Positions 1,826-26,224 of a stretch of DNA of 32,000 bases are shown here, in pieces. Source of the DNA: a bacterium (lineage in GTDB: Bacteria > Actinomycetota > Thermoleophilia > RBG-16-64-13); NCBI GenBank assembly GCA_043801935.1, contig JAZDLO010000130.1, positions 12,051 to 44,050 of the forward strand. The letters are read 5' to 3'. The translations under genes were made by a program, and so were the position numbers. The first letter of the stretch is position 1. The number at the start of each line of letters is the position of its first letter. Below the pieces are notes generated by a model. The model searched no databases and was not told the DNA's origin. It worked only from the letters and a program-made list of their open reading frames with translations.

Positions 1826-1914
1826 TCGCGTACGAGGCACCGCCGGTTCGACTAGGCTCGCAGGCCCGCCTGGTCGCCATCGTTTCGCATCCCTTTTCAC
1901 ATCTACGGACTGGT

Positions 1915-1938: not shown

Positions 1939-2013
1939 TGTGGGTGCCGTCGTCGGTGACCGAGTCCCGGCGCAGCGAAGGTTTCCAACAAATGGTATCC
2001 ATCGGGGGTCGAT

Positions 2014-2652: not shown

Positions 2653-2709
2653 CGGCTTGACGAGCCGGAGACCATCGCCCTCGCCGGGGCGATCGTCGGC
2701 AAACAGCCA

Positions 2710-3867: not shown

Positions 3868-3870
3868 CAA

Positions 3871-5040: not shown

Positions 5041-5057
5041 ATGGAGGGTCATAGCGA

Positions 5058-5729: not shown

Positions 5730-5746
5730 AGACAGACCCGTCCGAC

Positions 5747-5776
5747 TTGCCTGGGCTGCCTGCAAACCGTTATACT
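5747..5776 (+). promoter_or_regulatory. Putative sigma70-type promoter of modABC
   Basis: TTGCCT (5747-5752), 18-nt spacer, TATACT (5771-5776). It overlaps the inverted repeat CCGTT (5767-5771) / AACGG (5788-5792). Confidence 0.35.
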
Positions 5777-5799
5777 GCACGTCAGACAACGGACGAAGG

Positions 5800-6732: not shown

Positions 6733-6733
6733 C

Positions 6734-7378
6734 GTGGGCTGGCAGGCGTTCCTCATTTCGATGGAGGTGACGAGCGTCGCTACCGTGCTGGTCGTGCTTG
6801 TGGGAACCGCGGCCGGTCTGTGGATGGCGCGGGTTCGCTTTCCCGGGATGCAATTGGTCGAAGCCATATTCATGCTTCCTCTCGTCCTCCCACCGAGCGT
6901 CGTCGGCTACTATCTGCTCCGTTTTTTTGGCACCGGTGGGCCGGTCGAGGGACTGTTCGGGGTGAATCTGGTGTTTACCTGGATAGCAGCGGTGTTCGCG
7001 TCGGCTGTTGTGGCCCTTCCCCTGATGGTCCAGGCTGCTCGCACCGCGATCCGGGGGGTCGATCCGGTGCTCGAGAACGCCGCGCGCACCTTGGGCTCCT
7101 CAGAAGCGGCCGTGTTCTTTCGGGTGACTCTTCCGCTGGCTCGGCGCGGCCTCATTGCCGGCGCAGTTCTCTCCGCAGCCCGAGCTTTGGGGGAATTCGG
7201 AGCGACCCTCATGGTGGCGGGCAACATCCCAGGGCGGACCCAGACCCTGCCGTTGTTCGTGTACGATGCCGTCCAGAACCAGCAGTATGGCCTTGCCAAT
7301 CTCATCGTGGCTCTTCTCACCGGATTCGGCCTGGTCAGCTTCATCGTCATAGGGCGTCTCGACCCCGCGCATAGATGA
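6734..7378 (+). CDS. modB: Molybdate ABC transporter permease ModB
   Basis: Five or six TM helices and an EAA-like loop (ENAARTLGSSEAAVFFRVTLPLARRGL). GTG start 2 nt after the modA stop. Confidence 0.88.
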   Translation: MGWQAFLISMEVTSVATVLVVLVGTAAGLWMARVRFPGMQLVEAIFMLPLVLPPSVVGYYLLRFFGTGGPVEGLFGVNLVFTWIAAVFASAVVALPLMVQAARTAIRGVDPVLENAARTLGSSEAAVFFRVTLPLARRGLIAGAVLSAARALGEFGATLMVAGNIPGRTQTLPLFVYDAVQNQQYGLANLIVALLTGFGLVSFIVIGRLDPAHR

Positions 7379-8481
7379 CCGAACGCCGGCTTCTCGTCGA
7401 TATTCACAGGCGGCTTCCCTCCTTCACCCTCGACCTGCGGCTCGAGGTCGGCGAAGAGGTGCTGGTGCTGTTCGGCCCATCGGGTTCGGGCAAATCCATG
7501 ACTCTCGAGTCGATAGCCGGCCTGGTGACACCCGACCGGGGCGAGATGGTCCTCGATGGACGGGTCCTTTTCCGGCGCGGTCCGGGAGGTATGCAGACGA
7601 ACATGCCGGCTCGCAGACGAGGCGTCGGGTATGTCTTTCAAAGTTACGCCCTCTTTCCTCATCTGACGGTCCTGGGAAATGTCCGCTACCCCCTCGGCAG
7701 GGACCCAAAGGCACGGGAACGGGCGTTCGCGCTTATCGACCAAATGGGCATGACCCAGCTGGCGGACCGTCTCCCTCATCAGCTTTCCGGGGGTCAGCAG
7801 CAGAGGGTGGCCATCGCGCGGGCGCTGGCCAGGGACCCCGAAGTCCTGTTGCTCGACGAGCCCTTCTCCGCGCTCGACGCCGGACTCCGGGAAAGGCTAA
7901 GGACGGATCTGCGGTCGCTCCAGGTTGAACGACGTCTCGTGGTCATTTGCGTCACCCACAACGCAGAGGACGCCTTCGCCCTCGGGGATCGGCTCGCGGT
8001 CCTGCGGGATGGAGAACTCGAACAGGTAGGGACGGTGGGGGACGTATTCCACCGGCCCTCCACCATGCGCGCGGCAGAGGTGCTCGGGATCCGGAATATT
8101 TTTCACGCGCGTGTCTCGAGCGCGACCGCCGATCGCGTCGTTCTGGATTGGGAGGGCCTGCAGTTGTATGCACCCCCTCAGTCCTGCTCCCCGGGACAAC
8201 CGGTCCCCGTCTACGTCGCTCCGGAGGACGTCAAACTGCTTTATCCGGACCGGCCGGTGCTGGGCAGTTTAGCGGCGAACCAGCTAAGCGCGAGGGTCAT
8301 GAGCATCCACAACCGGCACGATATCCAGATCATCCGGCTTCTGCTGGACAACGGTCGTGAGTTGGAGGCGAGAGGCGCCAGCTATTTCTATCGGGAACTC
8401 GACCTTCATGCGGGTGGGCAGGTTCTGATCACCCTGCGGCAAGAGGGCCTGCGGATCCTCCATGAGGAGGACTCCGGCTGA
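7375..8481 (+). CDS. modC: Molybdate ABC transporter ATP-binding protein ModC with C-terminal TOBE-like domain
   Basis: Walker A GPSGSGKS, signature LSGGQQQRVAIARA, Walker B LLLDEPFSALD, and a C-terminal beta-rich region of about 130 aa. ATGA overlap with modB. Confidence 0.9.
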   Translation: MTERRLLVDIHRRLPSFTLDLRLEVGEEVLVLFGPSGSGKSMTLESIAGLVTPDRGEMVLDGRVLFRRGPGGMQTNMPARRRGVGYVFQSYALFPHLTVLGNVRYPLGRDPKARERAFALIDQMGMTQLADRLPHQLSGGQQQRVAIARALARDPEVLLLDEPFSALDAGLRERLRTDLRSLQVERRLVVICVTHNAEDAFALGDRLAVLRDGELEQVGTVGDVFHRPSTMRAAEVLGIRNIFHARVSSATADRVVLDWEGLQLYAPPQSCSPGQPVPVYVAPEDVKLLYPDRPVLGSLAANQLSARVMSIHNRHDIQIIRLLLDNGRELEARGASYFYRELDLHAGGQVLITLRQEGLRILHEEDSG

Positions 8482-8611
8482 AACCGAGACTTCGACGGAC
8501 TCTCGGCCAGTCGCGCGCGCGCCCACGCCCGGCGTGGCCTGAGTTGCCGCAGCGGGGAGTCCGGCCTTGGCGGTCCGCGGGCCCTCCTGCTATCATCTCC
8601 ACCCCTGACGT

Positions 8612-8683
8612 GGGCGATTAGCTCAGGGGGAGAGCGCTGTCTTCACACGGCAGAAGTCACTGGTTCAAATCCAGTATCGCCCA
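8612..8683 (+). tRNA. tRNA-Val (anticodon CAC)
   Basis: Manual cloverleaf: acceptor GGGCGAT/ATCGCCC, D-arm GCTC-AGGGGGA-GAGC, anticodon arm CTGTC-TTCACAC-GGCAG (anticodon CAC), variable loop AAGTC, T-arm ACTGG-TTCAAAT-CCAGT, discriminator A. CCA is not encoded. Confidence 0.9.
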
Positions 8684-8870
8684 CTTCTCTCGCATCTCAG
8701 CACCTCCCGGCCCTTGCGCGGCCGAGGTCCGTGCCAACGCGTTCTTGCTGTGTCTTGGCTCCTGTGCTACGGGCACGGACCGGTTGTCCACATGAGCTTG
8801 TCCCATTTCCTTGTAGGACATTGTCGGCCATTCCTGTAAGACATCATCCACTCGATATGTCGGCCGGTTG

Positions 8871-8912
8871 TTGACATAGCCCGCTTGCTTGTGTATTTAT
8901 GTACATGTCATG
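8871..8912 (+). promoter_or_regulatory. Conserved promoter/operator element, copy A (upstream of the HdrA/Qmo-like/Mvh operon)
   Basis: TTGACA (8871-8876), 17-nt spacer, TATTTA (8894-8899), then TATGTACATGTCATG. Identical at 38/42 positions to 23897-23938. Confidence 0.7.
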
Positions 8913-9222
8913 AGCGGCAAAGGTCTGGGCCGGCGGCCCCGTCCGCGCCGCGCGACCCGTGCCAGGGGGTACGATGCGGGCACAAACGTCAGCGTTGCCT
9001 CGAACCGGACCATACGGATCGTGACGTCCGTGCCGGCCCCCGATCCTCGCGACAAACCTTTTCTGCGCAGTCTCCAGCTTGCCTGTGCTCGTGCCGACCG
9101 CGATCGGTTGCGGCCAGACTTCGGACTCTTCCTGCAACCGGCGAGAGCATCGCGCTCGCCTGCACCAACGTCGAGGCCTACGGTACTACTACTCTAGGCC
9201 AACCGCTCGAACGGGGGGACAT

Positions 9223-11031
9223 ATGAGGACCGGCGTGTTCATTTGCCAGGTGGGTGGGGGCGACCCGGAGGCTGTAGACCTCCATGGCGTCGAGGCGTAC
9301 GCCGCCAATCTCCCCGACGTCGAATCGGTCAGGAATCTCGGTGTGCTTCCGGCTATCGACCCACAGACCCTCGCCGCCGAGTTCGCTCGCGACCGGCTGG
9401 AGCGGGTCGTGATAGCAGGCGATTCCCCCGGCTTCTTCAAGCCGGCCTTTGCCAGTGCCATGCGGCTCGCCGGCGGCGACCCCGACGAGGTCCGCTTGGC
9501 CTCCTTCCGTCAACACGGGGCGCTGTCGGGGATGGGTGCCCCTAGAGCGAAGTCCATCCTGGCTTGCGCGGTGCTGGGCGTACCGTTCCCTCTGGCCGCG
9601 GTCCCCGATACGACGGCGACCCATCCCGGCACGCTCATCATCGGGGCCGGGGTGGCCGGTATCCAGGCGGCGCTTGAGATCGCCGACGCGGGCAAACAGG
9701 TCTATCTGGTGGAGCGGACGGCCACCATCGGCGGGCACATGGCCATGTTCGACAAGACCTTTCCTACCCTGGACTGCGCCGCCTGCATCCTCACCCCCAA
9801 GATGGTGGCGGTGGGTCAGCACGAGATGATCGATCTCTTGACCTATGCCGAGGTCGAGGACATCAGCGGCTCGCCGGGGGCCTACCGGGCCAAGATCCGC
9901 AAGAAGGCCCGTCACGTGGACCTCGCCGCGTGTGTGGCCTGCAACGCGTGCACCGAGAGCTGTCCGGGCCGGGCATCCAGTGAGTTCGACTCGGGGATCG
10001 CCGAGCGCCGGTCTATCTTCATCCCCTTCCCTCAGGCGGTGCCTAACGCCTACGTGCTGGACGAGGCCTCCTGCCTCTACTTCCAGAGCGGGGGCGAGCG
10101 CTGCGGTGTGTGCGCCAAGAAATGCCCCAAGGAGTGCATCGATCTGGCCCAGAAGGATGAACTCATCGAGATACAAGTCGGCAACATCATCCTGGCCACC
10201 GGGTACGACATCTACGACGCCGCCAAGATCGAGCGCTACGGATATGGGACATTCCCCAACGTGCTTACCGCTCTCGAGTTCGAGCGCATGACCAACGCCT
10301 CGGGTCCCACCGGCGGCAAGATCGTCGTCAAGACGAAGAAGCACAACAAGCGCAAGAAAGTGGACGAATGGGTGCTCGACCCCGCGGGGAGTCCGCCGCG
10401 CAGCGTCGCCATCATCCATTGCGTCGGCTCCCGCGACGCCCAGCACAACGCGTACTGTTCGCGCGTCTGCTGCATGTACTCGCTGAAGTTCGCCCACCTG
10501 GTCAAGGAGAAGCTACCGGAGGCCATCTGCTACGAGTACTACATCGACATGCGCGCCTTCGGCAAGGGATATGAGGAGTTCGCCGACCGGATCGTGGCGG
10601 AGGGCACCTTTGTGGTGCGAGGACGCACCGCGCGCATCGTCGAGGTCGACGGGCAGATCGTCATCAAGGGCGAGGACATCCTCAGCGACAAGATGGTCGA
10701 CGCCCCGGTAGACATGGTCATCCTGGCCGTCGGCCTGGTTCCCGCGCGAGGCACCGAGCGGCTGGCCGAGATGCTCGGTATAGCCCGGGATCACGATGGC
10801 TGGTTCGGAGAGTTGGACTACAACTCCGATCCCACCGACACCGAACGGGGAGGGGTGTTCGTGGCAGGGGCCTGCCAGGCCCCCAAGGACATCCCCGACA
10901 CCGTCGCCCAGGCCTCGGCGGTCGCGGCCGGGGTCCTCAAGAGCATCACCACCGGTCGGGGATCGGACAGCCGAGCGGAGCTCTCTCTCAGTGACATCGA
11001 AGCGCGTGCGCGCAACCTCGTCCGGGTCTAA
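9223..11031 (+). CDS. hdrA: HdrA-like FAD/FeS flavoprotein, paralogue 1 (Cys-less N-terminal domain, inserted 2x[4Fe-4S] ferredoxin domain, no C-terminal ferredoxin domain)
   Basis: Dinucleotide fold LIIGAGVAGIQAALEIADAGKQVYLVERTATIGGHM. HdrA hallmark motifs FPTLDCAACILTPKM and HCVGSRD..YCSRVCCMYSLKFA. Inserted CVACNACTESCP and CGVCAKKCPKEC. ATG 9223 lies 5 nt after GGGGGG; the ORF-track start at 9079 has no support. Confidence 0.85.
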   Translation: MRTGVFICQVGGGDPEAVDLHGVEAYAANLPDVESVRNLGVLPAIDPQTLAAEFARDRLERVVIAGDSPGFFKPAFASAMRLAGGDPDEVRLASFRQHGALSGMGAPRAKSILACAVLGVPFPLAAVPDTTATHPGTLIIGAGVAGIQAALEIADAGKQVYLVERTATIGGHMAMFDKTFPTLDCAACILTPKMVAVGQHEMIDLLTYAEVEDISGSPGAYRAKIRKKARHVDLAACVACNACTESCPGRASSEFDSGIAERRSIFIPFPQAVPNAYVLDEASCLYFQSGGERCGVCAKKCPKECIDLAQKDELIEIQVGNIILATGYDIYDAAKIERYGYGTFPNVLTALEFERMTNASGPTGGKIVVKTKKHNKRKKVDEWVLDPAGSPPRSVAIIHCVGSRDAQHNAYCSRVCCMYSLKFAHLVKEKLPEAICYEYYIDMRAFGKGYEEFADRIVAEGTFVVRGRTARIVEVDGQIVIKGEDILSDKMVDAPVDMVILAVGLVPARGTERLAEMLGIARDHDGWFGELDYNSDPTDTERGGVFVAGACQAPKDIPDTVAQASAVAAGVLKSITTGRGSDSRAELSLSDIEARARNLVRV

Positions 11032-11042
11032 GGAGGATCAGC

Positions 11043-12188
11043 ATGGCGATCCGCGTCAATCCCAAACTGATCGACGATCTGGAGGTCTTCGGAGCGGAGG
11101 ACGTCTCCAACTGCTACCACTGCGGTAATTGCTCCGCCGTGTGTCCCTTCTCCAAGGAGCCGTATATCTTCCCCCGCCGATCCATGCGCTACCTACAGAT
11201 GGGACTGGAGAAGAAGCTGGAAGGCAGCCTGGAGCCGTGGCTCTGCTACTACTGCGGTGAATGCTCCGACGACTGTCCCCGTGACGCCGAGCCGGGCGAG
11301 ACCATGATGAGCCTGCGCCGCTGGTTGACCAGCCGGTACGACTTCACCGGCATCTCCCGGCTGTTCTACCGCTCGGGCAAGCTCGAGCTGATCATCATCA
11401 TCGCGGCCGCTCTGCTCACCGGTCTGGGGTTCGTGCTGTGGGGGATGTCGAAGGGAAGCATCCAGAGCTATGACGGTCCCAACGCCTTCCTGCCCCACGC
11501 GAGCATCCACTGGTTCGACTGGGGCCTCGCCGGCGTCCTCTTGGCGCTCCTGCTCACGAACTGCGCCCGCATGTGGTGGTTCACGATAGGGCGCGATAGG
11601 GATATCCATGTGCCCTTTACGCTGTACATACGAAAGGCGTTCCTCCTTCCATTGCACTTCTTCACCCAGAAACGCTACGCGAAGTGCGAGCGAAAGCGTC
11701 CTTGGCTGATCCACCTGGCTCTCATGCTGAGCTACGTGATCATGCTGGTGTTGATCATGTTCTTCCTCGGATTCATGCAGGGAGGGCCGGCGATCGATTG
11801 GCGGGTGCATGTGTTCGGCTACATCGCCACGGTGGGTCTGTTGGGGACCACGATCTTCGCCTTGCACGGACGCCTGCGCAAGACCGAGACCCAGTACAAG
11901 CATTCGCACGAGACGGATTGGATCTTTCTCGTCCTGCTCATCTTCGTGGCCTTCACCGGCATCCTGCAGCACATCATGCACCGGACCGGGTTGGACGTGG
12001 CGGCGAACGTGGTCTATGTGGTGCACCTGATGGGGGTAGTGCCCATGTTGGGGTTGGAGGTACCCTTCAGCAAGTGGTCGCACCTCGCCTACCGTCCTTT
12101 GGCCATGTACTTCGCCGACGTGCGGGCCGAGGCCCTGTCGGCGACCGTTGAAGCGCAGCGTCCCGTCCCAGCCCCTCAGACCACGTAG
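11043..12188 (+). CDS. QmoC-like subunit: HdrC-type 2x[4Fe-4S] ferredoxin domain fused to a 6-TM NarI/HdrE-like (putative cytochrome b) membrane domain
   Basis: N-terminal CYHCGNCSAVCP and CYYCGECSDDCP. This is followed by six hydrophobic helices carrying conserved-looking His residues (PWLIHLAL, IFALHG, ILQHIMH, VVYVVHLMG) and a terminal FSKWSHLAYRP motif typical of NarI-like proteins. Confidence 0.7.
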   Translation: MAIRVNPKLIDDLEVFGAEDVSNCYHCGNCSAVCPFSKEPYIFPRRSMRYLQMGLEKKLEGSLEPWLCYYCGECSDDCPRDAEPGETMMSLRRWLTSRYDFTGISRLFYRSGKLELIIIIAAALLTGLGFVLWGMSKGSIQSYDGPNAFLPHASIHWFDWGLAGVLLALLLTNCARMWWFTIGRDRDIHVPFTLYIRKAFLLPLHFFTQKRYAKCERKRPWLIHLALMLSYVIMLVLIMFFLGFMQGGPAIDWRVHVFGYIATVGLLGTTIFALHGRLRKTETQYKHSHETDWIFLVLLIFVAFTGILQHIMHRTGLDVAANVVYVVHLMGVVPMLGLEVPFSKWSHLAYRPLAMYFADVRAEALSATVEAQRPVPAPQTT

Positions 12189-12198
12189 CCGGAGCGTC

Positions 12199-13923
12199 AT
12201 GATGGATGAAAGAAAGATCGGCGTCTACGTATGCAACTGCGGTACCAACATCGCAAAGGTGGTCGACTGCGACGCGGTGGCTGAGTTCGCGTTGGGGCAG
12301 CCCGGGGTGGCAGTGGCCAAGTCGTACAAGTACATGTGTTCCAATCCGGGGCAGGAGATGATCGTCGAGGACATCAAGGCTCAGGGGCTGGACCGGGTAG
12401 TGGTGGCCGCCTGTAGCCCCCGGATGCACGAGCCCACGTTCCGTAAGGCCTTGGAGACCGCCGGGATCAACCCTTATTTCGTGGAGATGGCCAATATCCG
12501 CGAGCAGTGCAGCTGGGTGCACGACGACCCGGGGGTGGCGACGGACAAGGCGCGGGCGCTGACGCTCGCCGCCGTCCGGCGAGTGGCCTATCACGAACCC
12601 CTGGAGCGGCGCTCGGTAGAGATGAACTCTAACGTTCTGGTCATCGGGGGAGGCATGGTCGGCATGACCGCTGCCCTCGAACTGGCCGGTGGAGGGAGCC
12701 GGGTGTATCTCGTGGAGCGTCTAGACCACCTGGGCGGCAACGTGGCCCGGGTGGATCTCACCGCTCCCTATCTAGATTCTGCCCGGGACATGGTTACGGC
12801 CCTGGTGACGCGAACGACCGAGCATCCGCGCATCGAGGTGCTGCTCAACTCCGAGGTGACCGAAGTCAAGGGTTACGTCGGGAACTTCACATCCGTGGTC
12901 CAGACCATTTGGGGCGACCAGATAACCATGAGCGAGTTCCAGATGGGCAACGTGGTGGTCGCCACGGGGTACAAGGAGTTCGACGCCTCCCGGGTGACCC
13001 ACTACGGTTACGGCAAGCTGCCCAACGTCATCACTTCGTTCGAGCTCGAGAAGATGTTGCGGGCAGGGCGCGTCGAGACCAAAGAGGGTAAACCACCGCA
13101 GTATGTGGCCATCATCCACTGCGTGGGCAGCCGAAGTAAGGAGTTCCACGCCTACTGCTCGCGGGTCTGCTGCATGACTGCGCTCAAGTATACCCGGGAG
13201 GTTAAGTCCGCGCTTCCCAAGTGTTACGTGAGCGACGTCTACATCGACATGCATGCCTTCGGCAAAGGCCATGAGGACTTCTACCGGGGGACGTCCGAGG
13301 CCAAGACGCTGTTTCTCATGTACGGCAAGAACGATCACCCGGTGATCCGCAAGGCTGATCCCAAGGACGATTGCGAGATGCTCATCGAGGTGAACGAGAA
13401 GCTCTCGGGTGAGGTCATCGAGATCCCGGCCGACCTGGTGATCCTCATGGTGGGCATGGAAGCGCGGGAGGATTCGGAAGCGGTCGCCCGGCTGGTGAAC
13501 ATCAGCCGCGACAAAGACGGATGGTTCATCGAGAGCCATCCCAAGCTCGACCCGGTGGCCACGACCACCGAGGGCATCTACATCGCCGGTGCGTGCGCCG
13601 CGCCGAAGGACATCCCCGACTCGGTGGCGCAGGCCCGCGCCGCCGCCGGGCGCATCCTGGCCCGGACCCTCCGGGGCACCATCGATATCGACGCGGTGTT
13701 CGCCGAGGTCGACGAGGAGAAATGCTCGGGCTGCCGGATATGCAACGACCTCTGCCCCTACTCGGCAATAGACTACGACGACGAGAAGAAGCGCAGTAAC
13801 GTTATCAGCGCCCTCTGCAAGGCCTGCGGCGCCTGCGTGGCCGCCTGCCCCTCCAGCGCCATCACCGCCCGGCACTTCACCGACCAGCAGATATTCGCCG
13901 AGATCGAGGGGGTGCTGGCATGA
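12199..13923 (+). CDS. hdrA: HdrA-like FAD/FeS flavoprotein, paralogue 2 (Cys-rich N-terminal domain, no inserted ferredoxin domain, C-terminal 2x[4Fe-4S] ferredoxin domain)
   Basis: N-terminal IGVYVCNCGTNI..YMCSNPGQ..VVAACSPRMHE..IREQCSWVH. FAD fold VLVIGGGMVGMTAALELAGGGSRVYLVE. HCVGSRS..YCSRVCCMTALKY. C-terminal CSGCRICNDLCP and CKACGACVAACP. ATG 12199 follows GGAG; the ORF-track TTG at 12148 overlaps the upstream gene. Confidence 0.85.
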   Translation: MMDERKIGVYVCNCGTNIAKVVDCDAVAEFALGQPGVAVAKSYKYMCSNPGQEMIVEDIKAQGLDRVVVAACSPRMHEPTFRKALETAGINPYFVEMANIREQCSWVHDDPGVATDKARALTLAAVRRVAYHEPLERRSVEMNSNVLVIGGGMVGMTAALELAGGGSRVYLVERLDHLGGNVARVDLTAPYLDSARDMVTALVTRTTEHPRIEVLLNSEVTEVKGYVGNFTSVVQTIWGDQITMSEFQMGNVVVATGYKEFDASRVTHYGYGKLPNVITSFELEKMLRAGRVETKEGKPPQYVAIIHCVGSRSKEFHAYCSRVCCMTALKYTREVKSALPKCYVSDVYIDMHAFGKGHEDFYRGTSEAKTLFLMYGKNDHPVIRKADPKDDCEMLIEVNEKLSGEVIEIPADLVILMVGMEAREDSEAVARLVNISRDKDGWFIESHPKLDPVATTTEGIYIAGACAAPKDIPDSVAQARAAAGRILARTLRGTIDIDAVFAEVDEEKCSGCRICNDLCPYSAIDYDDEKKRSNVISALCKACGACVAACPSSAITARHFTDQQIFAEIEGVLA

Positions 13924-14354
13924 GCTTCGAGCCCAATATCGTCGGATTCCTGTGCAACTGGTGCTCGTACACGGGAGCCGATCTGGCAGGCACCAGCCGG
14001 ATCCACTACGCTCCGAACGTGAAGGTCATCCGGGTCATGTGTACCGCCCGCATCGATCCCACGTTCGTGCTCAAAGCCTTACGGGACGGGGCCGACGGGG
14101 TTCTCATCTGCGGATGCCACCCGGGGGACTGCCACTACTCGGAAGGCAACTACAAGATGATGCGCCGATACCCCCTGCTCAAGAAGATGCTCGCAGACTT
14201 CGGCATCGCAGAGGCCAGAGTGCGCCTCGAGTGGGTGAGCGCGAGCGAAGGCCAGCATTTTGCCGACATCGTGAACGATATGACCCAGCGCATCCGGGAA
14301 TTGGGACCGAGCCCCATACGGGCGGCCCTAGCCACTGACATGGCGGAGAGGTGA
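13920..14354 (+). CDS. mvhD: Methyl-viologen-reducing hydrogenase delta subunit (MvhD/FlpD family)
   Basis: IVGFLCNWCSYTGADLAG...VIRVMCTARIDP..LICGCHPGDCHY matches the MvhD Cys pattern. ATGA overlap with the preceding HdrA-like gene. Confidence 0.9.
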   Translation: MSFEPNIVGFLCNWCSYTGADLAGTSRIHYAPNVKVIRVMCTARIDPTFVLKALRDGADGVLICGCHPGDCHYSEGNYKMMRRYPLLKKMLADFGIAEARVRLEWVSASEGQHFADIVNDMTQRIRELGPSPIRAALATDMAER

Positions 14355-14357
14355 GTC

Positions 14358-15320
14358 GTGGCTGAGAAACTGCAGATCGCACTATATTGGGGCGCGGCCT
14401 GCGGCGGCTGCGACGTGGCGGTCTTGGACACCAACGAGTTCATCCTCGACGTGGCGGCCGTAGCCGACATCCGCCTGTGGCCCATCGCCGTGGACGGCAA
14501 ATACAAAGACGTCGAGGCCATGGAGGACGGGGAGCTCGATCTCGCCATCTTCAATGGAGCTGTGCGCAACTCGGAGAACGAGCACATCGCCCGGTTGCTG
14601 CGCCAGAAGAGCAAGCTCCTCATCGCCTTTGGAGCCTGCGCCTACATGGGCGGGATCCCCGGCCTGGCGAATCTCACCTCACGGGAGAAGATCTTCGACA
14701 CGGCTTACGTCCACAACCCCTCCATCGAGCCCGGCAGCAGCGTGGTGCCCCAACCCGAGAGCCGGGTGGATGGCAAGGTGCTCGACATCCCCCGGTTCTA
14801 CCGGCGAGTGTACCGCTTGGACCACGTGGTCGACGTCGACTACTACATCCCCGGCTGCCCACCCCAACCCGACCAAGTCAAGGGCGCCCTGCTCGCCGTC
14901 GTGAAGGGGGAGCTGCCCGCCAAGGGCTCCGTGGTGGGGGCGTACGAGCATGCTCTCTGCGAGGATTGCCCGCGCACCAGGAACGAGAAGAAGATCACCC
15001 GCTTCTACCGGCCCTGGGAGATCATGGCCGATCCCGAGACGTGCTTTTTGGAACAGGGCATACTCTGCGCAGGAGTGGCCACCCGCTCCGGATGCGGGGT
15101 GCGCTGTCCCAAGAGCGACATCCCCTGTCGCGGTTGCTATGGCCCGCCGCCGGGGGTCTTGGACCAGGGCGCCAAACTGGCGAGCGCGGTCTCCTCGATC
15201 GTCGACAGCAAGGACCCGGAGGAAATCCAGACGATCCTGGAAGGGCTGCCCGACTTCACCGGCTTCGCCTACCGGTACGGCGTAGCCTCATCGCTGCTGC
15301 AAAGGAGCTACCGGCCATGA
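14358..15320 (+). CDS. mvhG: [NiFe] hydrogenase small subunit, MvhG-like (group 3c context)
   Basis: N-terminal YWGAACGGCDVAVLD, then GACAYMGGIPG, IPGCPPQPDQV, and a distal Cys cluster region CEDCPR..CFLEQGILCAGVATRSGCGVRCPKSDIPCRGCYGP. GTG start 6 nt after GGAGAGG. Confidence 0.88.
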   Translation: MAEKLQIALYWGAACGGCDVAVLDTNEFILDVAAVADIRLWPIAVDGKYKDVEAMEDGELDLAIFNGAVRNSENEHIARLLRQKSKLLIAFGACAYMGGIPGLANLTSREKIFDTAYVHNPSIEPGSSVVPQPESRVDGKVLDIPRFYRRVYRLDHVVDVDYYIPGCPPQPDQVKGALLAVVKGELPAKGSVVGAYEHALCEDCPRTRNEKKITRFYRPWEIMADPETCFLEQGILCAGVATRSGCGVRCPKSDIPCRGCYGPPPGVLDQGAKLASAVSSIVDSKDPEEIQTILEGLPDFTGFAYRYGVASSLLQRSYRP

Positions 15321-16780
15321 CGAGAACGATCACCATCGACCCGATCACCCGCCTCGAAGGCCACGGGAAGATCTCCATCTTCCTCGACGATGCCGGGGCG
15401 GTGGAGGACTGCTACTTCCAGATCCCCGAGCTCCGCGGGTTCGAGCAGTTCGTCGTGGGCCGTCCTATCGAGGAGTTGCCCCGCATCGTCACGCGTATCT
15501 GCGGCGTGTGCCCGGCGAGCCATCACATGGCGAGCGCCAAGGCGGTGGACGGCTGCTTCAACAACGAGGTGGCGCCCCTCGCGCACAAGCTGCGCGACAT
15601 GTACTACAACGCTCATTACATACACAGCCATACGGCCCATTTCTACGCCTTGGCCGCTCCCGACTTCGTCCTCGGCCCTGATGCCGACCCGGCGGTCCGC
15701 AACATCCTGGGAGTGGTGGCCAAGGTAGGTCTTGAGATCGGGGGGCAGGTGATCCGCATCCGGGGGCTGGCCCAGGAGGTCCAGCGGATCATCGGCGGTC
15801 GGAACACCCAGGACATCTGGTGCCTCCCCGGAGGGGTGGCCAAGAGGCTCAAGGAGGAGGAGCTCGAGCAGATCAAGCCTTGGGTTGGCGAGATGTACGA
15901 GTTCACCCAGTTCAGCCTGCAGCTGTTCCGCGACGTGGTGCTGGGAAATCCGGGCTATGTCGATCTGATCTTGAACGGACCCTTTACTCTCGACGTCCAC
16001 AATATGGGCCTGGTGGACGAGAACAACGCCCCCAATTTCTACCACGGCAAGGTCCGGGTCGTGGACTACGAGGGCAAGGAGATATGCAAGTACGAAGCCA
16101 AGGACTACGCGGAGTACGTCGCCGAGCACGTAGAGCCGTGGTCGTATCTGAAATTCCCCTATCTCAAGAAGCGCGGCTGGAAAGGCTTCGTGGAGGGGAT
16201 CGACTCGAGCCTCTATTGCGCCACGCCCCTCTCCCGGCTCAACGTCGCCGACAGGATGGCCACTCCCAAAGCCCAGGAGGCCTTTGAGGAGATGTACGGG
16301 GTGCTGGGCGCCCATCCGTGCCGCGCGCTGTTGGCCCAGCACTGGGCTCGGCTGGTGGAGATGGTCCAGAACGCGGAGACGCTCCAGGGCTATTGCGACG
16401 ACCCGGAGATAACCGGCGAGCAGGTACGCGTCATCCCGCAGACCATAAGCGGCGAGGGCTTTGGGATAGTGGAGGCCATGCGCGGGACCCTGACCCATCA
16501 CTACACCTGCGATGAGCGCGGTATCTGCACCAGCGCGAACCTGATCGTGGGCACGACGAACAACAACGCACCTATCCAGATGGTGACCAAGAAGGTGGCA
16601 CAGGCTCTGATCAAACCGGGGATAGAGCCCGACCAAGGTCTGCTGAACATGGTGGAGATGGGTTTCCGCGCCTTCGATCCATGCTACAGTTGCGCCACCC
16701 ACAGCCTTGGGCAGATGCCCCTTGAAGCCGTAATCTACAAAGGTGGCGAGCTGCACAGGGCCATCAAACGGAACTGCTGA
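15317..16780 (+). CDS. mvhA: [NiFe] hydrogenase large subunit, MvhA-like
   Basis: ITIDPITRLEGHGKI, N-terminal Ni-binding RICGVCPASHH, and C-terminal DPCYSCATH followed by a 25-aa extension (a substrate for a maturation endopeptidase). ATGA overlap with the small subunit gene. Confidence 0.93.
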   Translation: MTRTITIDPITRLEGHGKISIFLDDAGAVEDCYFQIPELRGFEQFVVGRPIEELPRIVTRICGVCPASHHMASAKAVDGCFNNEVAPLAHKLRDMYYNAHYIHSHTAHFYALAAPDFVLGPDADPAVRNILGVVAKVGLEIGGQVIRIRGLAQEVQRIIGGRNTQDIWCLPGGVAKRLKEEELEQIKPWVGEMYEFTQFSLQLFRDVVLGNPGYVDLILNGPFTLDVHNMGLVDENNAPNFYHGKVRVVDYEGKEICKYEAKDYAEYVAEHVEPWSYLKFPYLKKRGWKGFVEGIDSSLYCATPLSRLNVADRMATPKAQEAFEEMYGVLGAHPCRALLAQHWARLVEMVQNAETLQGYCDDPEITGEQVRVIPQTISGEGFGIVEAMRGTLTHHYTCDERGICTSANLIVGTTNNNAPIQMVTKKVAQALIKPGIEPDQGLLNMVEMGFRAFDPCYSCATHSLGQMPLEAVIYKGGELHRAIKRNC

Positions 16781-16796
16781 GGAAAGGCGAATCCAG

Positions 16797-17483
16797 ATGG
16801 TTGACGTTGCCCTTCTTAGCCACTCGAAGCACTTCGCGGGCCTGAGTAAACGAGAGCTGGAGCAAGTGGCCGATATTGCCGTGCTGGAAAAGCAGCCGGC
16901 CGGCCATCAAGTGATCGAGGAGAACGAGACGGCTTCAGACCTGTACCTGGTCTCCGAGGGAAGGGTCGCCGTCAAGATGAGGAGCCGCACCGGCCAGGAA
17001 GTGGTAATAGACGAGCTCGGTCCCGGCTCCCTGTTCGGGTGGTCGGCCGTATTGGACGACCAGACGTTCACAGCGGCTGTTTCCACCGTCGAGCCGTCGA
17101 TGCTCGTCGCGATCGACGGCCCCCGTCTCAGACAGCTTTTCCAGGAGTATCCGGCCATCGCCTCCCACTTGGTCACCAGCATCGCCATCGTGATCTCGAG
17201 CCGGCTCGCCCATCTGAGGTCCAAGCTGGCGGACGAGCCTTTCGCCCCGGAGTGGCTCATGTCACCTACCCAGGCCGGGCCCCTCGGCGGACCGTGCCTA
17301 TCACCGACGAGCGATATGCGGAAAATGGCCTGTCCTGCATGCGCCACCGTCAACGGGCCCTTCGGCGTTGTGAACGAGACGGCACAATATCGGTGCCGCA
17401 GCTGCGGGATGGTCTTCTACGCCCCGGCCTGCTGTGAGACTCCGGAAACTGAGTCCGACAAAGCGAAGGGCGGCGTCGCCTAA
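16797..17483 (+). CDS. Cyclic-nucleotide-binding-domain (CAP effector-domain) protein with C-terminal Cys-rich zinc-ribbon; no HTH
   Basis: Beta-barrel cNMP-domain pattern (FAGLSKRELEQVA..GHQVIEENETASDLYLVSEGRVAVKM..LGPGSLFGWSAVL..). The C-terminus reads CPAC-(17 aa)-CRSC..ACC. RBS GAGGAAAGG lies upstream of ATG 16797, which is 17 nt after the mvhA stop. Confidence 0.7.
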   Translation: MVDVALLSHSKHFAGLSKRELEQVADIAVLEKQPAGHQVIEENETASDLYLVSEGRVAVKMRSRTGQEVVIDELGPGSLFGWSAVLDDQTFTAAVSTVEPSMLVAIDGPRLRQLFQEYPAIASHLVTSIAIVISSRLAHLRSKLADEPFAPEWLMSPTQAGPLGGPCLSPTSDMRKMACPACATVNGPFGVVNETAQYRCRSCGMVFYAPACCETPETESDKAKGGVA

Positions 17484-17604
17484 GCGGCGGAGCCTCGTCT
17501 CGCTTTGGCGACAACAGGAGTTACACGTACGCCCGGGAACGGTTAGAGGCCCGTGGCTGAAGGCTTGGCCGCCCGAAGGCCGTGTACTTCGCGCCGCGGC
17601 CCTC

Positions 17605-18090
17605 TTACTGTCGCAGCAGTCGGAGCGCCTCGTGTATGATCTGGCGCGAATAGGTGGGGTAGGCGGACTCCAGTTCGGCCGTCATGCTCTCCGAGAATAT
17701 GGCGTTGTCGACGATCTCCACAGCGAAGATGTGCACGTTCTCCGGAGACGGTATGTGGGCCCCCATCCGCCGGCCCAGCTCGAGCGCCGTCGTGAAGTTG
17801 GCGTCATGCACGTTGGTGAGATTCATGGTCTCTCTGAAGGACTCCCCGGTCATGGCGTGCCACGCCCCGGGCTGTGCCCCCGTGGTCTTTATGGAGTCGA
17901 AGACGATGAGGCGGTCGTAGCCGGTCACCAGGTCAAGGAGGTTGAGCCCGCCTACGGAGCAGTCTTCAAAGATGTGGACGTCGGTCCGGTCCTTCAGTTC
18001 GGTGCTGAAGTCCTTCGCCAGTCTTATCCCTACTGCGTCATCGCAAAGGATGGGATTTCCCATGCCGAGAATGATGGTCCGTGTCGTCAT
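17605..18090 (-). CDS. [NiFe] hydrogenase maturation endopeptidase (HyaD/HybD/FrhD family)
   Basis: MTTRTIILGMGNPILCDDAVGIRLA...LIVFDSIKT...NVHDANF matches the GxGNxxxxDDGxG and D...H metal-ligand pattern of the family. The ORF-track start at 18192 is trimmed to ATG 18090. Confidence 0.85.
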   Translation of the reverse strand: MTTRTIILGMGNPILCDDAVGIRLAKDFSTELKDRTDVHIFEDCSVGGLNLLDLVTGYDRLIVFDSIKTTGAQPGAWHAMTGESFRETMNLTNVHDANFTTALELGRRMGAHIPSPENVHIFAVEIVDNAIFSESMTAELESAYPTYSRQIIHEALRLLRQ

Positions 18091-18175
18091 CTCTGCCTGT
18101 ATCGCACATCGCGCGGCCGCGCGCAAGGGGGAAGGCCGACTTCTGAGAGGCGGCGGATGGTAAGGGGTCGCAAGC

Positions 18176-18520
18176 TTGCATGAGTTGAGCATCGCCCAGG
18201 CTCTTGTGGATCAAGTCGAGGAAGTAAGGACGTCCAACGGCGGCGGCCGTGTTCTCGCCGCCCAGGTCCGGATAGGGACGTGGCATCTGATCGTGCCCGA
18301 GATCCTTGCCGGTTACTACGAACTGCTCGTGCGCGGAACACCCCTGGAGGGCTCGCGCGTGGCTATCGAGACCGTGGACGCGAGGGCCCGCTGTAATAAG
18401 TGCAACAGGATCTTTCCCGTGCAAGAAGCGTGGGTCGTCTGTCCGGATTGCGCGTCGCTCGACGCTTGTCTTTTGAGCGGGAAGGAATTGAATCTCGTCA
18501 GCGTGGAAATGGAGGATTGA
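18176..18520 (+). CDS. hypA: Hydrogenase nickel-insertion protein HypA
   Basis: N-terminal MHELSIA plus zinc site CNKC...CPDC. 114 aa. Confidence 0.92.
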   Translation: MHELSIAQALVDQVEEVRTSNGGGRVLAAQVRIGTWHLIVPEILAGYYELLVRGTPLEGSRVAIETVDARARCNKCNRIFPVQEAWVVCPDCASLDACLLSGKELNLVSVEMED

Positions 18521-18526
18521 GCTAGC

Positions 18527-19213
18527 TTGGAGATCAAGGTCCTACAGAACATACTCGAGGTCAACGACCAGGCGGCGGCCGAGATCCGGAGAGGACTGGC
18601 GGCCGAGGGCGTGACGGCGGTCAACGTGATCAGCGCTCCGGGAGCCGGTAAGACGTCTCTCCTCGAGCGAGTGATCCCTCTCCTGGGGACTCGTTTGCGG
18701 GTGGCCGTCCTCGAAGGCGATATCGCCACCACCCGGGATGCCGAGCGCATCGACAGACTCGGGGTCCCGGTGGTCCAGCTTCTCACGGGCGGGGGTTGTC
18801 ATTTGGAGGCGACGCTGGTCGGCAAGGGGTTGGCCGAGCTGCCTCTGGCGGATCTGGATCTGGTGTTCATCGAGAACGTGGGCAACATCGCCTGTCCCGC
18901 TGAGTTCGACTTGGGTGAAGCAGCCAAGATAGGCCTGCTGAGCGTCACCGAAGGTCACGACAAGCCTGCCAAGTACCCACTGCTGTTCCACGAGGTGGGG
19001 GCTCTGGTGCTGAACAAGGTGGACCTGTTGCCGTACACGGACTTCGACCTCGATCTCTTCGAGCGTGATTTCCGAGGTCTCAACGCGCACGCTCCCGTTT
19101 TCCTGGTCTCCTGCCGGACGGGGGAGGGGATCGCCGCATTCGTCAGCTGGCTGCAGGGAAAAGTGGACGAAGCCCGAGAGGGCGAGGGTCAGCCGGGATC
19201 CACCGGATACTGA
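18527..19213 (+). CDS. hypB: Hydrogenase nickel-incorporation GTPase HypB (no His-rich or CxxCGC N-terminus)
   Basis: P-loop SAPGAGKTSLLE, GGGCHLEA (the CH motif), ENVGN, NKVDL. TTG start 10 nt after GGAGGA. Confidence 0.9.
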   Translation: MEIKVLQNILEVNDQAAAEIRRGLAAEGVTAVNVISAPGAGKTSLLERVIPLLGTRLRVAVLEGDIATTRDAERIDRLGVPVVQLLTGGGCHLEATLVGKGLAELPLADLDLVFIENVGNIACPAEFDLGEAAKIGLLSVTEGHDKPAKYPLLFHEVGALVLNKVDLLPYTDFDLDLFERDFRGLNAHAPVFLVSCRTGEGIAAFVSWLQGKVDEAREGEGQPGSTGY

Positions 19214-21498
19214 TGGTAGCCCGCGTCAGAGCCCGCGTCCAGGGCACGGTGCAGGGAGTGGGCTTCAGGCCCGCCGTCTTTCGGCACGCCGTGGCCTGCG
19301 GCTTGACGGGCTTCGTCCGCAACGATCCCCAGGGCGTCACTCTGGACGTCGAGGGAGACGAAGACAGGGTGGCCGCGTTCTTCGACGGATTGGCGGCGCA
19401 CGCGCCTCAGCAGGCCGAAATCCAGCGGGTGACGACGCGGAGGCTTGCGCCCCGCGGCTACGAGAGTTTCGACGTGATGCCGTCGGAGCCGGGTGGGAGG
19501 GTCAGGGTCCATCTTCCCCCGGATCTGGCTACGTGCCCGGTGTGCCTGAGAGAGTTGTGGGACCCCACCGATCGTCGCCATCGATACCCGTTCATCAACT
19601 GTGTCGACTGCGGACCTCGCTTCACCATCGTGAATGCCCTGCCCTACGATCGCGCCGCTACGTCCATGGACAGCTTCACCCTCTGCAGCGCTTGTGCCCG
19701 GGAATACCACGACCCGGGAGACCGGCGGTTCCACGCCCAACCGAACGCCTGTCCCGAGTGCGGGCCGCATCTTTTCTTGCTCCGGCCGGACGGGGTGGAG
19801 CTGGAGGTCGGTGAATGCGCGCTCCGACAGGCTCAAGGACTGCTCGCGGCCGGGGATATAGTGGCGGTGAAAGGTCTGGGGGGTTACCACCTCGCCTGCA
19901 GCGCCTTTGACGGTGAGGCGATCGCTCGGCTTCGCGATCGAAAAGATCGCCCGCACAAGGCCTTGGCCGTCATGTTCAGGGACTTAACGGCGCTTCGGAA
20001 GTACCTATCGGTCACCCGAGCCGAGATGGCGGAACTGCAGTCGTCGTCCCGGCCCATCGTGGTCGTGCAGGGGCGATTCAGCGCTGCGGTCTCCCCGGAT
20101 ACCGATAGCACTGGGGCCTTCCTGCCCTACACTCCCCTCCATCACCTACTCCTAGAGCCGTTCGAGGCGCTGGTTCTCACCAGCGGCAACCGCAGGGATG
20201 AGCCTATCGCCCGGGACGAATCGGAAGTGCAGCACCTTCTGGGCCCGGTGGCCGACGCCGCCCTTGCTCATGATCGCCCCGTCGCGGGCCGCTGCGACGA
20301 CTCGGTCGTCCGGCTGATCGATGGCGGCCGCCAGTTCTTGCGGCGCGCCCGCGGCTTCGTGCCCATCCCGGTGCGGATCGCCCCCGCTTCTCTCCCGGTG
20401 CTTGCCACCGGAGCAGAGTTGAAGAACACCTTCTGCCTGGTGGGAGGGGGGGAGGCGTTCGTGTCCCAGCACATAGGTGAGCTTCGAGACTATCCCACCT
20501 ACGTCTTCTACCAAGAGGAGATGATCCGTTGGCAGGAGCTGCTGAGGATCGAGCCCCGAATAGTGGCGCACGATCTACATCCGGCCTACCTTTCCTCGAC
20601 CTATGCCCGGAGTCTTGAGAACGTCAGTCTGGTAGGAGTCCAACATCACCACGCCCACGTGGCCAGCGTCATGGCGGAGAAGGGCCTTCTTGGCCCCGTA
20701 ATCGGGATTGCTTTCGACGGGACCGGCTATGGCACCGATGGGACGGTGTGGGGCGGCGAGTTCCTCCTCGCGGACCGGCTCGACTTCCAGCGTCTCTCTC
20801 ATTTCCAGACCTACGCCCTTCCCGGAGGGGAGAAGGCCATCGACGAACCGTGGCGCATGGCTCTCAGCATGTGCTTGGCCGAGGGGATCCCTTGGTCGCG
20901 CGGCGAGCAGAAAGACGAAGGGAAGGAAGTACCGGTCGAGCTGGTGGAGCGACTCATCTCCTCCGGTATCAACTGCCCCCTCACCTCCAGCGCCGGCCGG
21001 CTTTTCGACGCCGTGGCGTCTTTGCTCGGGCTCTGCGATGCGGCCGGCTACGAAGCCCAAGGGGCCATCCGGCTCGAGGCGGCCGCCGATCCGGCCGCCC
21101 GGGGCCACTACCCGTTCGAAATCCACCGAACCGCGGAACCCTGGCTGCTCGATTTCGGGCCCACCCTGCACGCACTGGTGGAAGACCGGGGGCGCTGTAC
21201 GGACGTCGGCCTGGTGGCGGCGAGATTCCACAACACGGTAGCCGCCGCGACTGCGGCGGTCGCCCACAGACTGTGCGCCGATCGGAACGTGACGGACGTC
21301 GTACTCTCGGGCGGCGTGTTCCAAAATGGTCTGCTCCTGGACCGCACCCGCCGGGCGCTGCGAGCTGCCGGTCTGAGCGTGCACGTGAATTCGGTGGTGC
21401 CGCCGAACGACGGGGGTATCTCGCTCGGGCAGGCCGCGGTCGCCGTCGCCCGAGCAGGGGTCTCCGCCGTCGCCAGAGAAGTAGCCCCATGTGCCTAG
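19213..21498 (+). CDS. hypF: Carbamoyltransferase HypF
   Basis: Acylphosphatase domain (VQGTVQGVGFRP), two zinc-finger pairs (CPVC..CVDCGPRF; CSAC..CPECGP), a YrdC-like domain and a Kae1-like domain. 761 aa. Confidence 0.93.
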   Translation: MVARVRARVQGTVQGVGFRPAVFRHAVACGLTGFVRNDPQGVTLDVEGDEDRVAAFFDGLAAHAPQQAEIQRVTTRRLAPRGYESFDVMPSEPGGRVRVHLPPDLATCPVCLRELWDPTDRRHRYPFINCVDCGPRFTIVNALPYDRAATSMDSFTLCSACAREYHDPGDRRFHAQPNACPECGPHLFLLRPDGVELEVGECALRQAQGLLAAGDIVAVKGLGGYHLACSAFDGEAIARLRDRKDRPHKALAVMFRDLTALRKYLSVTRAEMAELQSSSRPIVVVQGRFSAAVSPDTDSTGAFLPYTPLHHLLLEPFEALVLTSGNRRDEPIARDESEVQHLLGPVADAALAHDRPVAGRCDDSVVRLIDGGRQFLRRARGFVPIPVRIAPASLPVLATGAELKNTFCLVGGGEAFVSQHIGELRDYPTYVFYQEEMIRWQELLRIEPRIVAHDLHPAYLSSTYARSLENVSLVGVQHHHAHVASVMAEKGLLGPVIGIAFDGTGYGTDGTVWGGEFLLADRLDFQRLSHFQTYALPGGEKAIDEPWRMALSMCLAEGIPWSRGEQKDEGKEVPVELVERLISSGINCPLTSSAGRLFDAVASLLGLCDAAGYEAQGAIRLEAAADPAARGHYPFEIHRTAEPWLLDFGPTLHALVEDRGRCTDVGLVAARFHNTVAAATAAVAHRLCADRNVTDVVLSGGVFQNGLLLDRTRRALRAAGLSVHVNSVVPPNDGGISLGQAAVAVARAGVSAVAREVAPCA

Positions 21499-26188: not shown

Positions 26189-26224
26189 CAGGCGGTCATC
26201 CACCTGTAGCAAGGAAACGAGAAT

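Follow-up and report, generated by a model that had tools for sequence, protein, structure and literature searches.

The window analysed here, a 32-kb stretch of DNA from contig JAZDLO010000130.1 of a bacterium of the class Thermoleophilia, carries on its plus strand a cluster of six genes at 9223-16780 (all coordinates are positions in the window), which encode two HdrA-like flavoproteins (A1 and A2), a QmoC-like membrane subunit and the MvhD, MvhG and MvhA subunits of a [NiFe] hydrogenase (Table 1). The open reading frames (ORFs) lie on the same strand at exactly the positions, and in the order A1-qmoC-A2-mvhD-mvhG-mvhA, given by an initial annotation made from the sequence, with junctions of 11, 10, -4, 3 and -4 nt along the cluster. 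The tight coupling described in that annotation is borne out, but only two of its three ATGA overlaps are present, namely at 13920 (A2/mvhD) and at 15317 (mvhG/mvhA). The start codon of A2 is part of an ATGATGG at 12199, which is located 10 nt past the qmoC stop without any overlap. The starts that do not overlap a preceding gene have Shine-Dalgarno-like sequences on their 5' side. The ATG at 12199 agrees with the conserved N-terminus MMDE..IGVYVCNCG of the A2 orthologs, and the alternative start TTG at 12148 was ruled out because the orthologs begin at this conserved MMDE.

A survey of synteny, one of the checks put forward with the initial annotation, revealed a wide distribution of the cluster. 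A search with QmoC as the query returned over 2,600 homologs and no fewer than 589 species-level genomes; gene orders were counted in the best 80 loci, and conservation was assessed over 54 orthologous A1-qmoC-A2 loci. The order A1-qmoC-A2-mvhD-mvhG-mvhA is present in 40 of the best 80 loci, usually followed by an endopeptidase gene, and seven further loci from Bacteroidota have the order mvhD-mvhG-mvhA-A1-qmoC-A2, in addition to 15 loci with the classic order qmoA-qmoB-qmoC. Loci of the first kind are labelled as Actinomycetota, Acidobacteriota, Latescibacterota, Krumholzibacteriota, Sumerlaeota, “Deltaproteobacteria”/Myxococcota and Chrysiogenota, together with a metagenome-assembled genome (MAG) labelled Pseudomonadota, and the closest relatives among the best 80 loci come from Thermoleophilia/Gaiellales, with identities of 79-90%. 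Altogether, at least 8 phyla have members with the cluster, the arrangement of which is far beyond chance. Since the synteny is kept in dozens of independent MAGs, chance or mis-assembly was ruled out as its origin.

A1 and A2 both align with HdrA of methanogens, but differ in the domains that they retain. A1 aligns to residues 5-562 of the M. wolfeii HdrA (5odc_A) with an E value of 1.6e-131. Its N-terminal domain is degenerate and Cys-less, with VFICQVGGG replacing the CxCG ligands. It keeps the flavin adenine dinucleotide (FAD)/TrxR domain with the Cys197-type motif DCAAC (C185/C188) and the DKTFPTLDCAACIL motif, the inserted 2x[4Fe-4S] ferredoxin domain and the HA4-type cluster (C400/412/416/417), and has no C-terminal ferredoxin domain. 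By contrast, A2, which aligns to residues 9-240 and 326-653 of HdrA (8rvu_a) with an E value of 2.9e-150, possesses the N-terminal [4Fe-4S] domain (VYVCNCGTNI; C12/C14/C47/C72/C104), the HA4-type cluster and the C-terminal 2x[4Fe-4S] ferredoxin domain, but lacks the inserted ferredoxin domain; its FAD/TrxR domain has lost Cys197 (LDSARD), the place of which is occupied by DLTAPYLDSARD. The relevant Cys residues of both proteins are invariant across the 54 orthologous clusters of many phyla, and the losses of Cys residues and domains are equally kept. Judged by these motifs, A1 and A2 are complementary halves of the methanogen HdrA: the FAD and six [4Fe-4S] clusters that HdrA holds in one polypeptide, itself forming a homodimer, are here divided between two proteins. 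As one copy of each accessory domain is left across A1 and A2, the pair would make up a single asymmetric bifurcating unit, i.e. one obligate heterodimer with a QmoA/QmoB-like architecture.

According to Chadwick et al. 2022 (PMC9012536), electrons in the M. wolfeii structure pass from MvhD by way of the C-terminal ferredoxin domain and on to FAD, and from the TrxR-domain cluster to HdrC/B, and HdrA tandems in which the N-terminal domain and Cys197 complement each other are interpreted as obligate heterodimers. Similar to A1 and A2, the tandem or fused HdrA of anaerobic methanotrophic archaea (ANME) and the Moorella MetFV-HdrABC-MvhD (PMC9012536) have the N-terminal cluster domain and Cys197 complementary between two HdrA paralogs. 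In the present cluster, however, the division extends to the inserted and C-terminal ferredoxin domains, and a membrane cytochrome serves as the partner.

The same division is found in the canonical QmoA and QmoB encoded at an uncultured deltaproteobacterial locus (L032), where QmoA corresponds to A1 minus the vestigial N-terminal domain, and QmoB to A2 plus a fused MvhD. As QmoA and QmoB share the A1/A2 split, A1, QmoC, A2 and MvhD would architecturally represent a Qmo complex, of the kind reportedly described as QmoABC of Desulfovibrio by Pires in 2003. The same domain split applies to Desulfovibrio QmoABC (Ramos 2012), with A1 resembling QmoA, A2 plus MvhD resembling QmoB, and a QmoC in which an HdrC domain is joined to a membrane cytochrome b. 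Compared to QmoABC, MvhD is here a separate gene, A1 keeps a degenerate N-terminal domain, and the gene order is A-C-B instead of A-B-C. Moreover, A1 and A2 share only 27-42% identity with QmoA/B-like proteins and are far closer to the methanogen HdrA. The genomic link is also different, as the present cluster is joined to a hydrogenase and not to aprBA: no apr, sat, dsr or other reductase gene was found in the window, and none is conserved beside the 54 orthologous clusters.

The likeness to Qmo raises the alternative that the inserted ferredoxin domain of A1 docks a cytoplasmic reductase (AprAB-like, DsrC-linked or unknown) rather than free ferredoxin, so that electrons from H2 and menaquinol would be confurcated onto that reductase, as Ramos et al. 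proposed for QmoABC. In line with it are the QmoA/QmoB architecture of A1, A2 and MvhD, a QmoC subfamily that also serves an aprA-qmoAB-sat cluster, and the findings of Ramos et al. 2012 (PMC3333476), who reported that QmoA interacts with AprAB and suggested a hydrogenase as the missing partner of the MvhD domain of QmoB. We nevertheless consider such a docking unlikely, in view of the missing reductase genes and of the much closer relationship of A1 and A2 to the methanogen HdrA (E values of 1e-131 to 1e-150) than to QmoA/B. In addition, the A1-QmoC-A2 core also pairs with Flx modules, which fits a generic ferredoxin-coupled module.

The apr-linked cluster of L032 spans 1507-11089 of that locus in the order aprA-qmoA-qmoB(MvhD fusion)-sat-ORF-qmoC. 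Several Actinomycetota loci of Thermoleophilia/Gaiellales (L028, L029 and L047 among others, e.g. 3707-8922 of L029) encode an MvhD-like protein, a QmoA-like protein, a QmoB-like protein, a small ORF and QmoC in this order, and have no aprBA in the visible stretch, representing a Qmo-type complex with no known partner.

QmoC consists of an HdrC-like ferredoxin domain and a His-rich domain of six transmembrane (TM) helices, a composition already assigned by the initial annotation and now backed by Pfam, TM prediction and an AlphaFold2 (AF2) model. The N-terminal 95 residues bind, by prediction, two [4Fe-4S] clusters through eight invariant Cys residues (C24/27/30/34 and C68/71/74/78), match Pfam Fer4_8, and resemble HdrC (7bkb_C) with an E value of 5e-12. 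Six helices are predicted at residues ~112-132, 156-180, 224-244, 254-274, 293-313 and 319-338; the AF2 model has a mean pLDDT of 69, with values of 80-94 in the TM part, which supports the helices, and poor confidence in the FeS domain. As the loop 184-224 between TM2 and TM3 is rich in Lys and Arg, this loop and the FeS domain are predicted to be cytoplasmic. Six His residues (H156, H224, H256, H289, H328 and H347) are 100% conserved in the 54 orthologs, four of which (H156, H224, H328 and H347) are retained even in a 28%-identical paralog. According to the TM prediction and the AF2 model, the candidate His pairs are located one near each membrane face, forming putative ligand pairs as in a di-heme cytochrome b that contacts quinone. 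For comparison, two hemes b and two FAD are bound by QmoABC purified from Desulfovibrio, which also reacts with analogues of menaquinol (PMC3333476). Within the loop 184-224, C215 is invariant, also in the 28%-identical paralog, and H205 is nearly invariant; the two residues may supply an additional ligand or touch the HdrA pair.

The assignment to QmoC was examined against curated models and related loci. QmoC matches the NCBIfam qmoC model over its full length (5-360 of 360) at 176.8 bits, and is 64% identical to the QmoC of the aprA-qmoAB-sat cluster in L032, which itself scores 181.6 bits. As this apr-linked QmoC is also under the equivalog cutoff of 300 bits, the cutoff excludes this whole subfamily of QmoC. 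In a neighbour-joining tree, the Mvh-linked and the classic QmoAB-linked QmoCs are interleaved, which together with the 64% identity indicates that the protein is a bona fide QmoC of a subfamily missed by the curated cutoff. A sequence search of the PDB with the membrane domain returned nothing at E <= 1, and no QmoC-type structure has been deposited. As the profile comparison with NarI found no similarity, the label “NarI/HdrE-like” is taken from the literature.

The hydrogenase subunits are closest to the Mvh/Vhu enzymes of group 3c, in agreement with the Mvh-type hydrogenase of the initial annotation. MvhA has the motifs RLEGH (residues 12-16), RICGVCPASH (60-69) and DPCYSCATH (454-462), the last followed by a cleavable C-terminal tail, and thus both the N-terminal RxCGxC and the C-terminal DPCxxCxxH motifs for the Ni-Fe ligands of group 3c. 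Its best scores are against the group 3c structures 9sw2_F (391 bits) and 5odc_F (372 bits), compared to 350 bits for the bifurcating NiFe enzyme 7t2r_D, 308 bits for the NAD-reducing Hox enzyme 5xf9_D, 142 bits for NiFeSe, 111 bits for Frh and 89 bits for the SH1 sulfhydrogenase. MvhG matches 5odc_E (MvhG/VhuG) over its full length, with an E value of 3e-60 and 207 bits, versus 1e-22 or weaker for the small subunits of groups 3d/3b and at most 84 bits for all other groups. Its 12 Cys residues would suffice to ligate three [4Fe-4S] clusters, and as it has no twin-arginine (Tat) motif, the hydrogenase is predicted to be cytoplasmic. MvhD, which belongs to PF02662 (E value of 1.5e-54) and has conserved Cys residues, is best matched in NCBIfam by the MvhD domain of HdrA2 and next by VhuD; the VhuA, VhuG and VhuD models rank at the top, yet with scores under their equivalog cutoffs. 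Moreover, the overlap of the mvhD start with the A2 stop links the hydrogenase genes to HdrA, as in group 3c. Taken together, the comparisons support a cytoplasmic hydrogenase closest to group 3c.

In methanogens, the high-potential branch of HdrABC ends at HdrB, a protein with two CCG domains and a noncubane [4Fe-4S] catalytic site. As pointed out in the initial annotation, no such protein is encoded here: neither a Pfam search of all sizeable ORFs nor a six-frame regular-expression search for the CCG signature found a CCG-domain ORF in the 32-kb window, and no CCG/HdrB gene lies inside any of the 54 orthologous clusters. Moreover, 44 of the 54 A1-qmoC-A2 loci are free of CCG ORFs within ~10 kb, and CCG genes within 10 kb are found only beside a second, divergent HdrBC-HdrA-MvhDGA-protease cluster, the HdrA of which is 43% identical. 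This paralogous cluster adjoins, often in divergent orientation, in the first ~8 kb of L002, L004, L016, L022, L026 and L027. Since both clusters adjoin in one genome, the soluble HdrB-type and the QmoC-type systems are kept as distinct paralogs. It is therefore very improbable that the present cluster encodes an ordinary Mvh-HdrABC whose HdrB is provided from elsewhere, with QmoC as an extra membrane tether. The HdrB-like CCG proteins near the cluster in several related genomes could be taken for the remote subunit; however, they belong to the paralogous cluster with its own hydrogenase and protease, and the HdrC-like domain that would touch HdrB is here fused to the cytochrome. Compared to MvhAGD-HdrABC of methanogens (5ODC, 8RVU, 9SW2), the present system shares MvhA, MvhG and MvhD, an HdrA fold that has the cofactor motifs, the HdrC-like di-cluster domain and, presumably, flavin-based bifurcation from H2. 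It differs in that HdrB with its noncubane clusters is absent, HdrC is fused to a six-TM cytochrome, two complementary half-proteins take the place of the HdrA homodimer, and the presumed high-potential acceptor is menaquinone instead of CoM-S-S-CoB.

The A1-QmoC-A2 core is not tied to the hydrogenase. In seven loci, mostly labelled Acidobacteriota, MvhDGA is replaced by a FlxDCBA-like NAD(P)H module directly upstream of A1-qmoC-A2, with one MvhD-like protein, a pair of FeS proteins and an NAD/FAD-binding subunit (Table 1). Such an interchangeable input module is shared with FlxABCD-HdrABC (Ramos et al. 2015), but FlxABCD-HdrABC and other modular HdrA systems deliver their output to HdrBC/DsrC, whereas QmoC and quinone would take this place here.

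The closest counterpart in the literature comes from methanogenic Archaeoglobi. Ca. Methanoglobus nevadensis encodes MvhAGD, two HdrA and an HdrC-QmoC fusion, for which Buessecker et al. (2023 ISME J; bioRxiv 10.1101/2022.12.01.518715) speculated on electron flow among H2, ferredoxin and menaquinone. Lynes et al. 2024 found the same cluster highly expressed in the cultured Ca. M. hypatiae, which has no HdrB, and proposed bifurcation from H2 to menaquinone and ferredoxin; the expression of the Ca. Methanoglobus cluster amounts to 995-2431 reads per kilobase per million mapped reads (RPKM). By published description, the gene content (MvhAGD, two HdrA, HdrC-QmoC, no HdrB) and the hypothesis are thus shared. 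However, that cluster is archaeal, thermophilic and methanogenic, whereas the present one is bacterial, closest to Gaiellales/Thermoleophilia, and its family extends over at least 8 bacterial phyla. The remark of the initial annotation that no characterised example is known still holds, as our reading of the literature turned up neither a biochemical characterisation nor a solved structure, nor any paper on the bacterial clusters, but the idea itself is not unprecedented. Since the same gene set and hypothesis have been published for archaea, the present cluster adds a bacterial member to a kind already noted, though uncharacterised. The present analysis adds the complementarity of A1 and A2, which equals the QmoA/QmoB split, the QmoC subfamily shared with apr-linked Qmo, the Flx-linked variant, and the breadth over phyla. 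A report on “a third way of energy conservation in acetogenic bacteria” is said to concern a periplasmic hydrogenase together with MetVF-HdrCBA-MvhD, which is a different system.

From the architecture, we infer that the six gene products would assemble into one membrane-anchored H2:menaquinone/ferredoxin bifurcating complex, in which the Mvh hydrogenase is docked on a Qmo-type core, a reading to which we give slightly better than even odds. In this scheme, for which we followed the electron paths given by Chadwick et al. 2022 (PMC9012536), H2 would be oxidised at MvhA in the cytoplasm. The three clusters of MvhG and the [2Fe-2S] cluster of MvhD would relay the electrons to the C-terminal ferredoxin domain of A2, which would hand them on to the bifurcating FAD in the obligate A1/A2 heterodimer. 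The high-potential electron would then travel via the TrxR-domain cluster, the HdrC-like domain of QmoC and two b hemes to menaquinone, whereas the low-potential electron would take the single N-terminal cluster, putatively ligated by A2 residues and one Cys of the A1 motif DCAAC, and the single inserted ferredoxin domain of A1 to reach ferredoxin. The net reaction would be 2 H2 + MQ + 2 Fd(ox) -> MQH2 + 2 Fd(red) + 2 H+ (MQ, menaquinone; Fd, ferredoxin). The potentials are -414 mV for H2, -74 mV for MQ and about -450 to -500 mV for Fd. As the drop from H2 to MQ is ample to drive the transfer from H2 to Fd, the forward reaction would be comfortably exergonic.

We favour this complex because the genes form a tight operon with translational coupling, and because A1 and A2 are complementary, with the relevant Cys residues invariant in the 54 orthologs, as in the heterodimeric HdrA of Chadwick et al. 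It is further favoured by the split shared with QmoA/QmoB, given that QmoABC binds two hemes b and two FAD and can react with menaquinol analogues, by a QmoC with an HdrC domain, six TM helices and conserved His residues that belongs to a subfamily common to the apr-linked QmoC, and by a cytoplasmic hydrogenase closest to group 3c. Moreover, the cluster has no CCG gene and coexists in several genomes with a separate HdrBC-HdrA-MvhDGA paralog, its A1-QmoC-A2 core also pairs with a Flx-like NAD(P)H module, mirroring the modularity of HdrABC, and the homologous archaeal cluster is highly expressed and has led to the same hypothesis. The proposal of the initial annotation that a quinone serves as the high-potential partner, in H2:quinone/ferredoxin bifurcation, thus gains support: no CCG-domain gene partners the cluster in the window or in the 54 orthologous loci, the membrane domain keeps its six helices and six invariant His residues, and the large subunit falls closest to group 3c.

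Two other modes of operation were weighed for the same set of subunits. In a linear, non-bifurcating cytoplasmic H2:menaquinone oxidoreductase, the HdrA pair would be a mere electron wire. The transfer from H2 to MQ alone is strongly exergonic, and no ferredoxin gene is linked to the cluster, in keeping with such an enzyme; however, the low-potential branch, comprising the N-terminal cluster, the trans-Cys motif and the inserted ferredoxin domain with its eight Cys residues, is invariant across at least 8 phyla, which would not be expected of a dead-end branch and makes the linear enzyme quite improbable. The complex might also run in reverse, a direction likewise allowed by the initial annotation, confurcating electrons from menaquinol and reduced ferredoxin to form H2 and so disposing of quinol electrons in fermentation or syntrophy. 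The literature treats group 3c enzymes as bidirectional, and a HydABC-type [FeFe] hydrogenase and an H2-sensing-like kinase in the window suggest a fermentative H2 metabolism. Yet MQH2 and Fd average about -260 to -290 mV, at which H2 formation is feasible only at ~1-10 Pa H2, and periplasmic quinol oxidation would add the need to build a proton-motive force. We hold reverse operation to be improbable.

Several points weigh against the bifurcating H2:menaquinone/ferredoxin complex or parts of it. For clusters of this type, the literature offers neither biochemical nor genetic evidence, and HdrB, AprAB or other partners could be encoded beyond the 32-kb window. As both A1 and A2 have the FAD and HA4 motifs, either flavin might be the bifurcating one. 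QmoC stays, at 176.8 bits, under the NCBIfam equivalog cutoff of 300; a Foldseek search of QmoC against the PDB gave no significant match, with weak hits to NarI (probability of 0.87, TM-score of 0.44) and mycobacterial EtfD, and a comparison of the QmoC profile with E. coli NarI by hhalign detected no similarity. Moreover, with a quinone site on the periplasmic side, proton-motive force would be lost in the forward reaction.

The features around the cluster are given in Table 1. On its 5' side, ABC-transporter genes and a tRNA-Val gene are followed by the leader; a search of the whole window against Rfam detected this tRNA alone, and the leader contains no riboswitch or other Rfam family. A scan of 8600-18300, including the leader, found no sigma-70-like promoter and no terminator, but such a scan is uninformative in a genome of 64% GC. 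The gene for a cyclic-nucleotide (cNMP)-binding protein on the 3' side of mvhA has counterparts in this place only in the closest Gaiellales-type loci (L001 and L003) and lies outside the conserved core; its product may be a clade- or lineage-specific regulator or accessory of the hydrogenase operon. The gene for the HycI-type endopeptidase is inverted in the window, L001 and L003, whereas in most orthologous loci it directly follows mvhA on the same strand. Further downstream, a HydABC-type [FeFe] hydrogenase adjoins the [NiFe] system and the hyp genes, and is probably an NADH/ferredoxin-dependent bifurcating hydrogenase. The last two genes look like a putative H2-sensing two-component system with a group C-like sensory hydrogenase.

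Table 1. Features of the window and position of the Flx-linked loci
Feature	Position	Strand	Length	Remarks
tRNA-Val	8612-8684			Rfam
Leader of the cluster	8685-9222		~540 nt	
hdrA-like 1 (A1, QmoA-type half)	9223-11031	+	602 aa	
qmoC(-like)	11043-12188	+	381 aa	
hdrA-like 2 (A2, QmoB-type half)	12199-13923	+	574 aa	
mvhD, [2Fe-2S] adaptor subunit	13920-14354	+	144 aa	
mvhG, [NiFe] hydrogenase small subunit	14358-15320	+	320 aa	
mvhA, [NiFe] hydrogenase large subunit	15317-16780	+	487 aa	
cNMP-binding protein with C-terminal Zn-ribbon	16797-17483	+		PF00027 (4e-17); begins 16 nt beyond the mvhA stop
HycI-type maturation endopeptidase for the large subunit	17605-18192	-		PF01750
hypA, hypB, hypF, hypC, hypD, hypE ([NiFe] maturation)	18176-23811	+		Pfam matches
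HydABC-type [FeFe] hydrogenase	24465-28180	+		NuoE-like, NuoF-like, HydA with NuoG-like N-terminal domains
Hybrid receiver-histidine kinase	28269-29489	-		Putative two-component system with the next gene
[FeFe]-hydrogenase-like domain fused to HisKA/HATPase	29455-31497	-		
Flx-linked loci (L050, L055, L056, L057, L059, L070, L071)	~3.4-8.1 kb; 0.2-3.4 kb in L070			Outside the window

The group 3c hydrogenases of bacterial MAGs are routinely annotated as “MvhADG-HdrABC”, although the organisms have no CoM/CoB, and papers on MAGs of Sumerlaeota, Gemmatimonadota, the FCB phyla and Ignavibacteriae name group 3c plainly in this way. The present analysis suggests that a large and very conserved subset of group 3c sends its high-potential electron to the menaquinone pool via QmoC. 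The system recombines known modules, and the hypothesis is in print for archaea; yet it is widespread, mis-annotated and testable. It is conceivable, with chances that we put a little short of even, that these clusters represent a widespread and overlooked class of respiratory enzymes, with A1-QmoC-A2 as a general module for quinone and ferredoxin bifurcation that takes its input from Mvh or a Flx-type NAD(P)H module; the Flx-linked variant points to such a general core. If so, many “Mvh-HdrABC” annotations in MAGs from soil, peat and sediment (Thermoleophilia, Acidobacteriota, Bacteroidales and others) would be quinone-linked rather than heterodisulfide-linked, and a docking partner for the enigmatic MvhD domain of QmoB would be revealed. 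The cluster would also offer a tractable experimental model for the long-debated role of Qmo-type complexes in con- or bifurcation (Ramos 2012). Finally, cytoplasmic H2, ferredoxin and respiration would be directly coupled, which would alter the H2 metabolism deduced for abundant lineages of soil and sediment.

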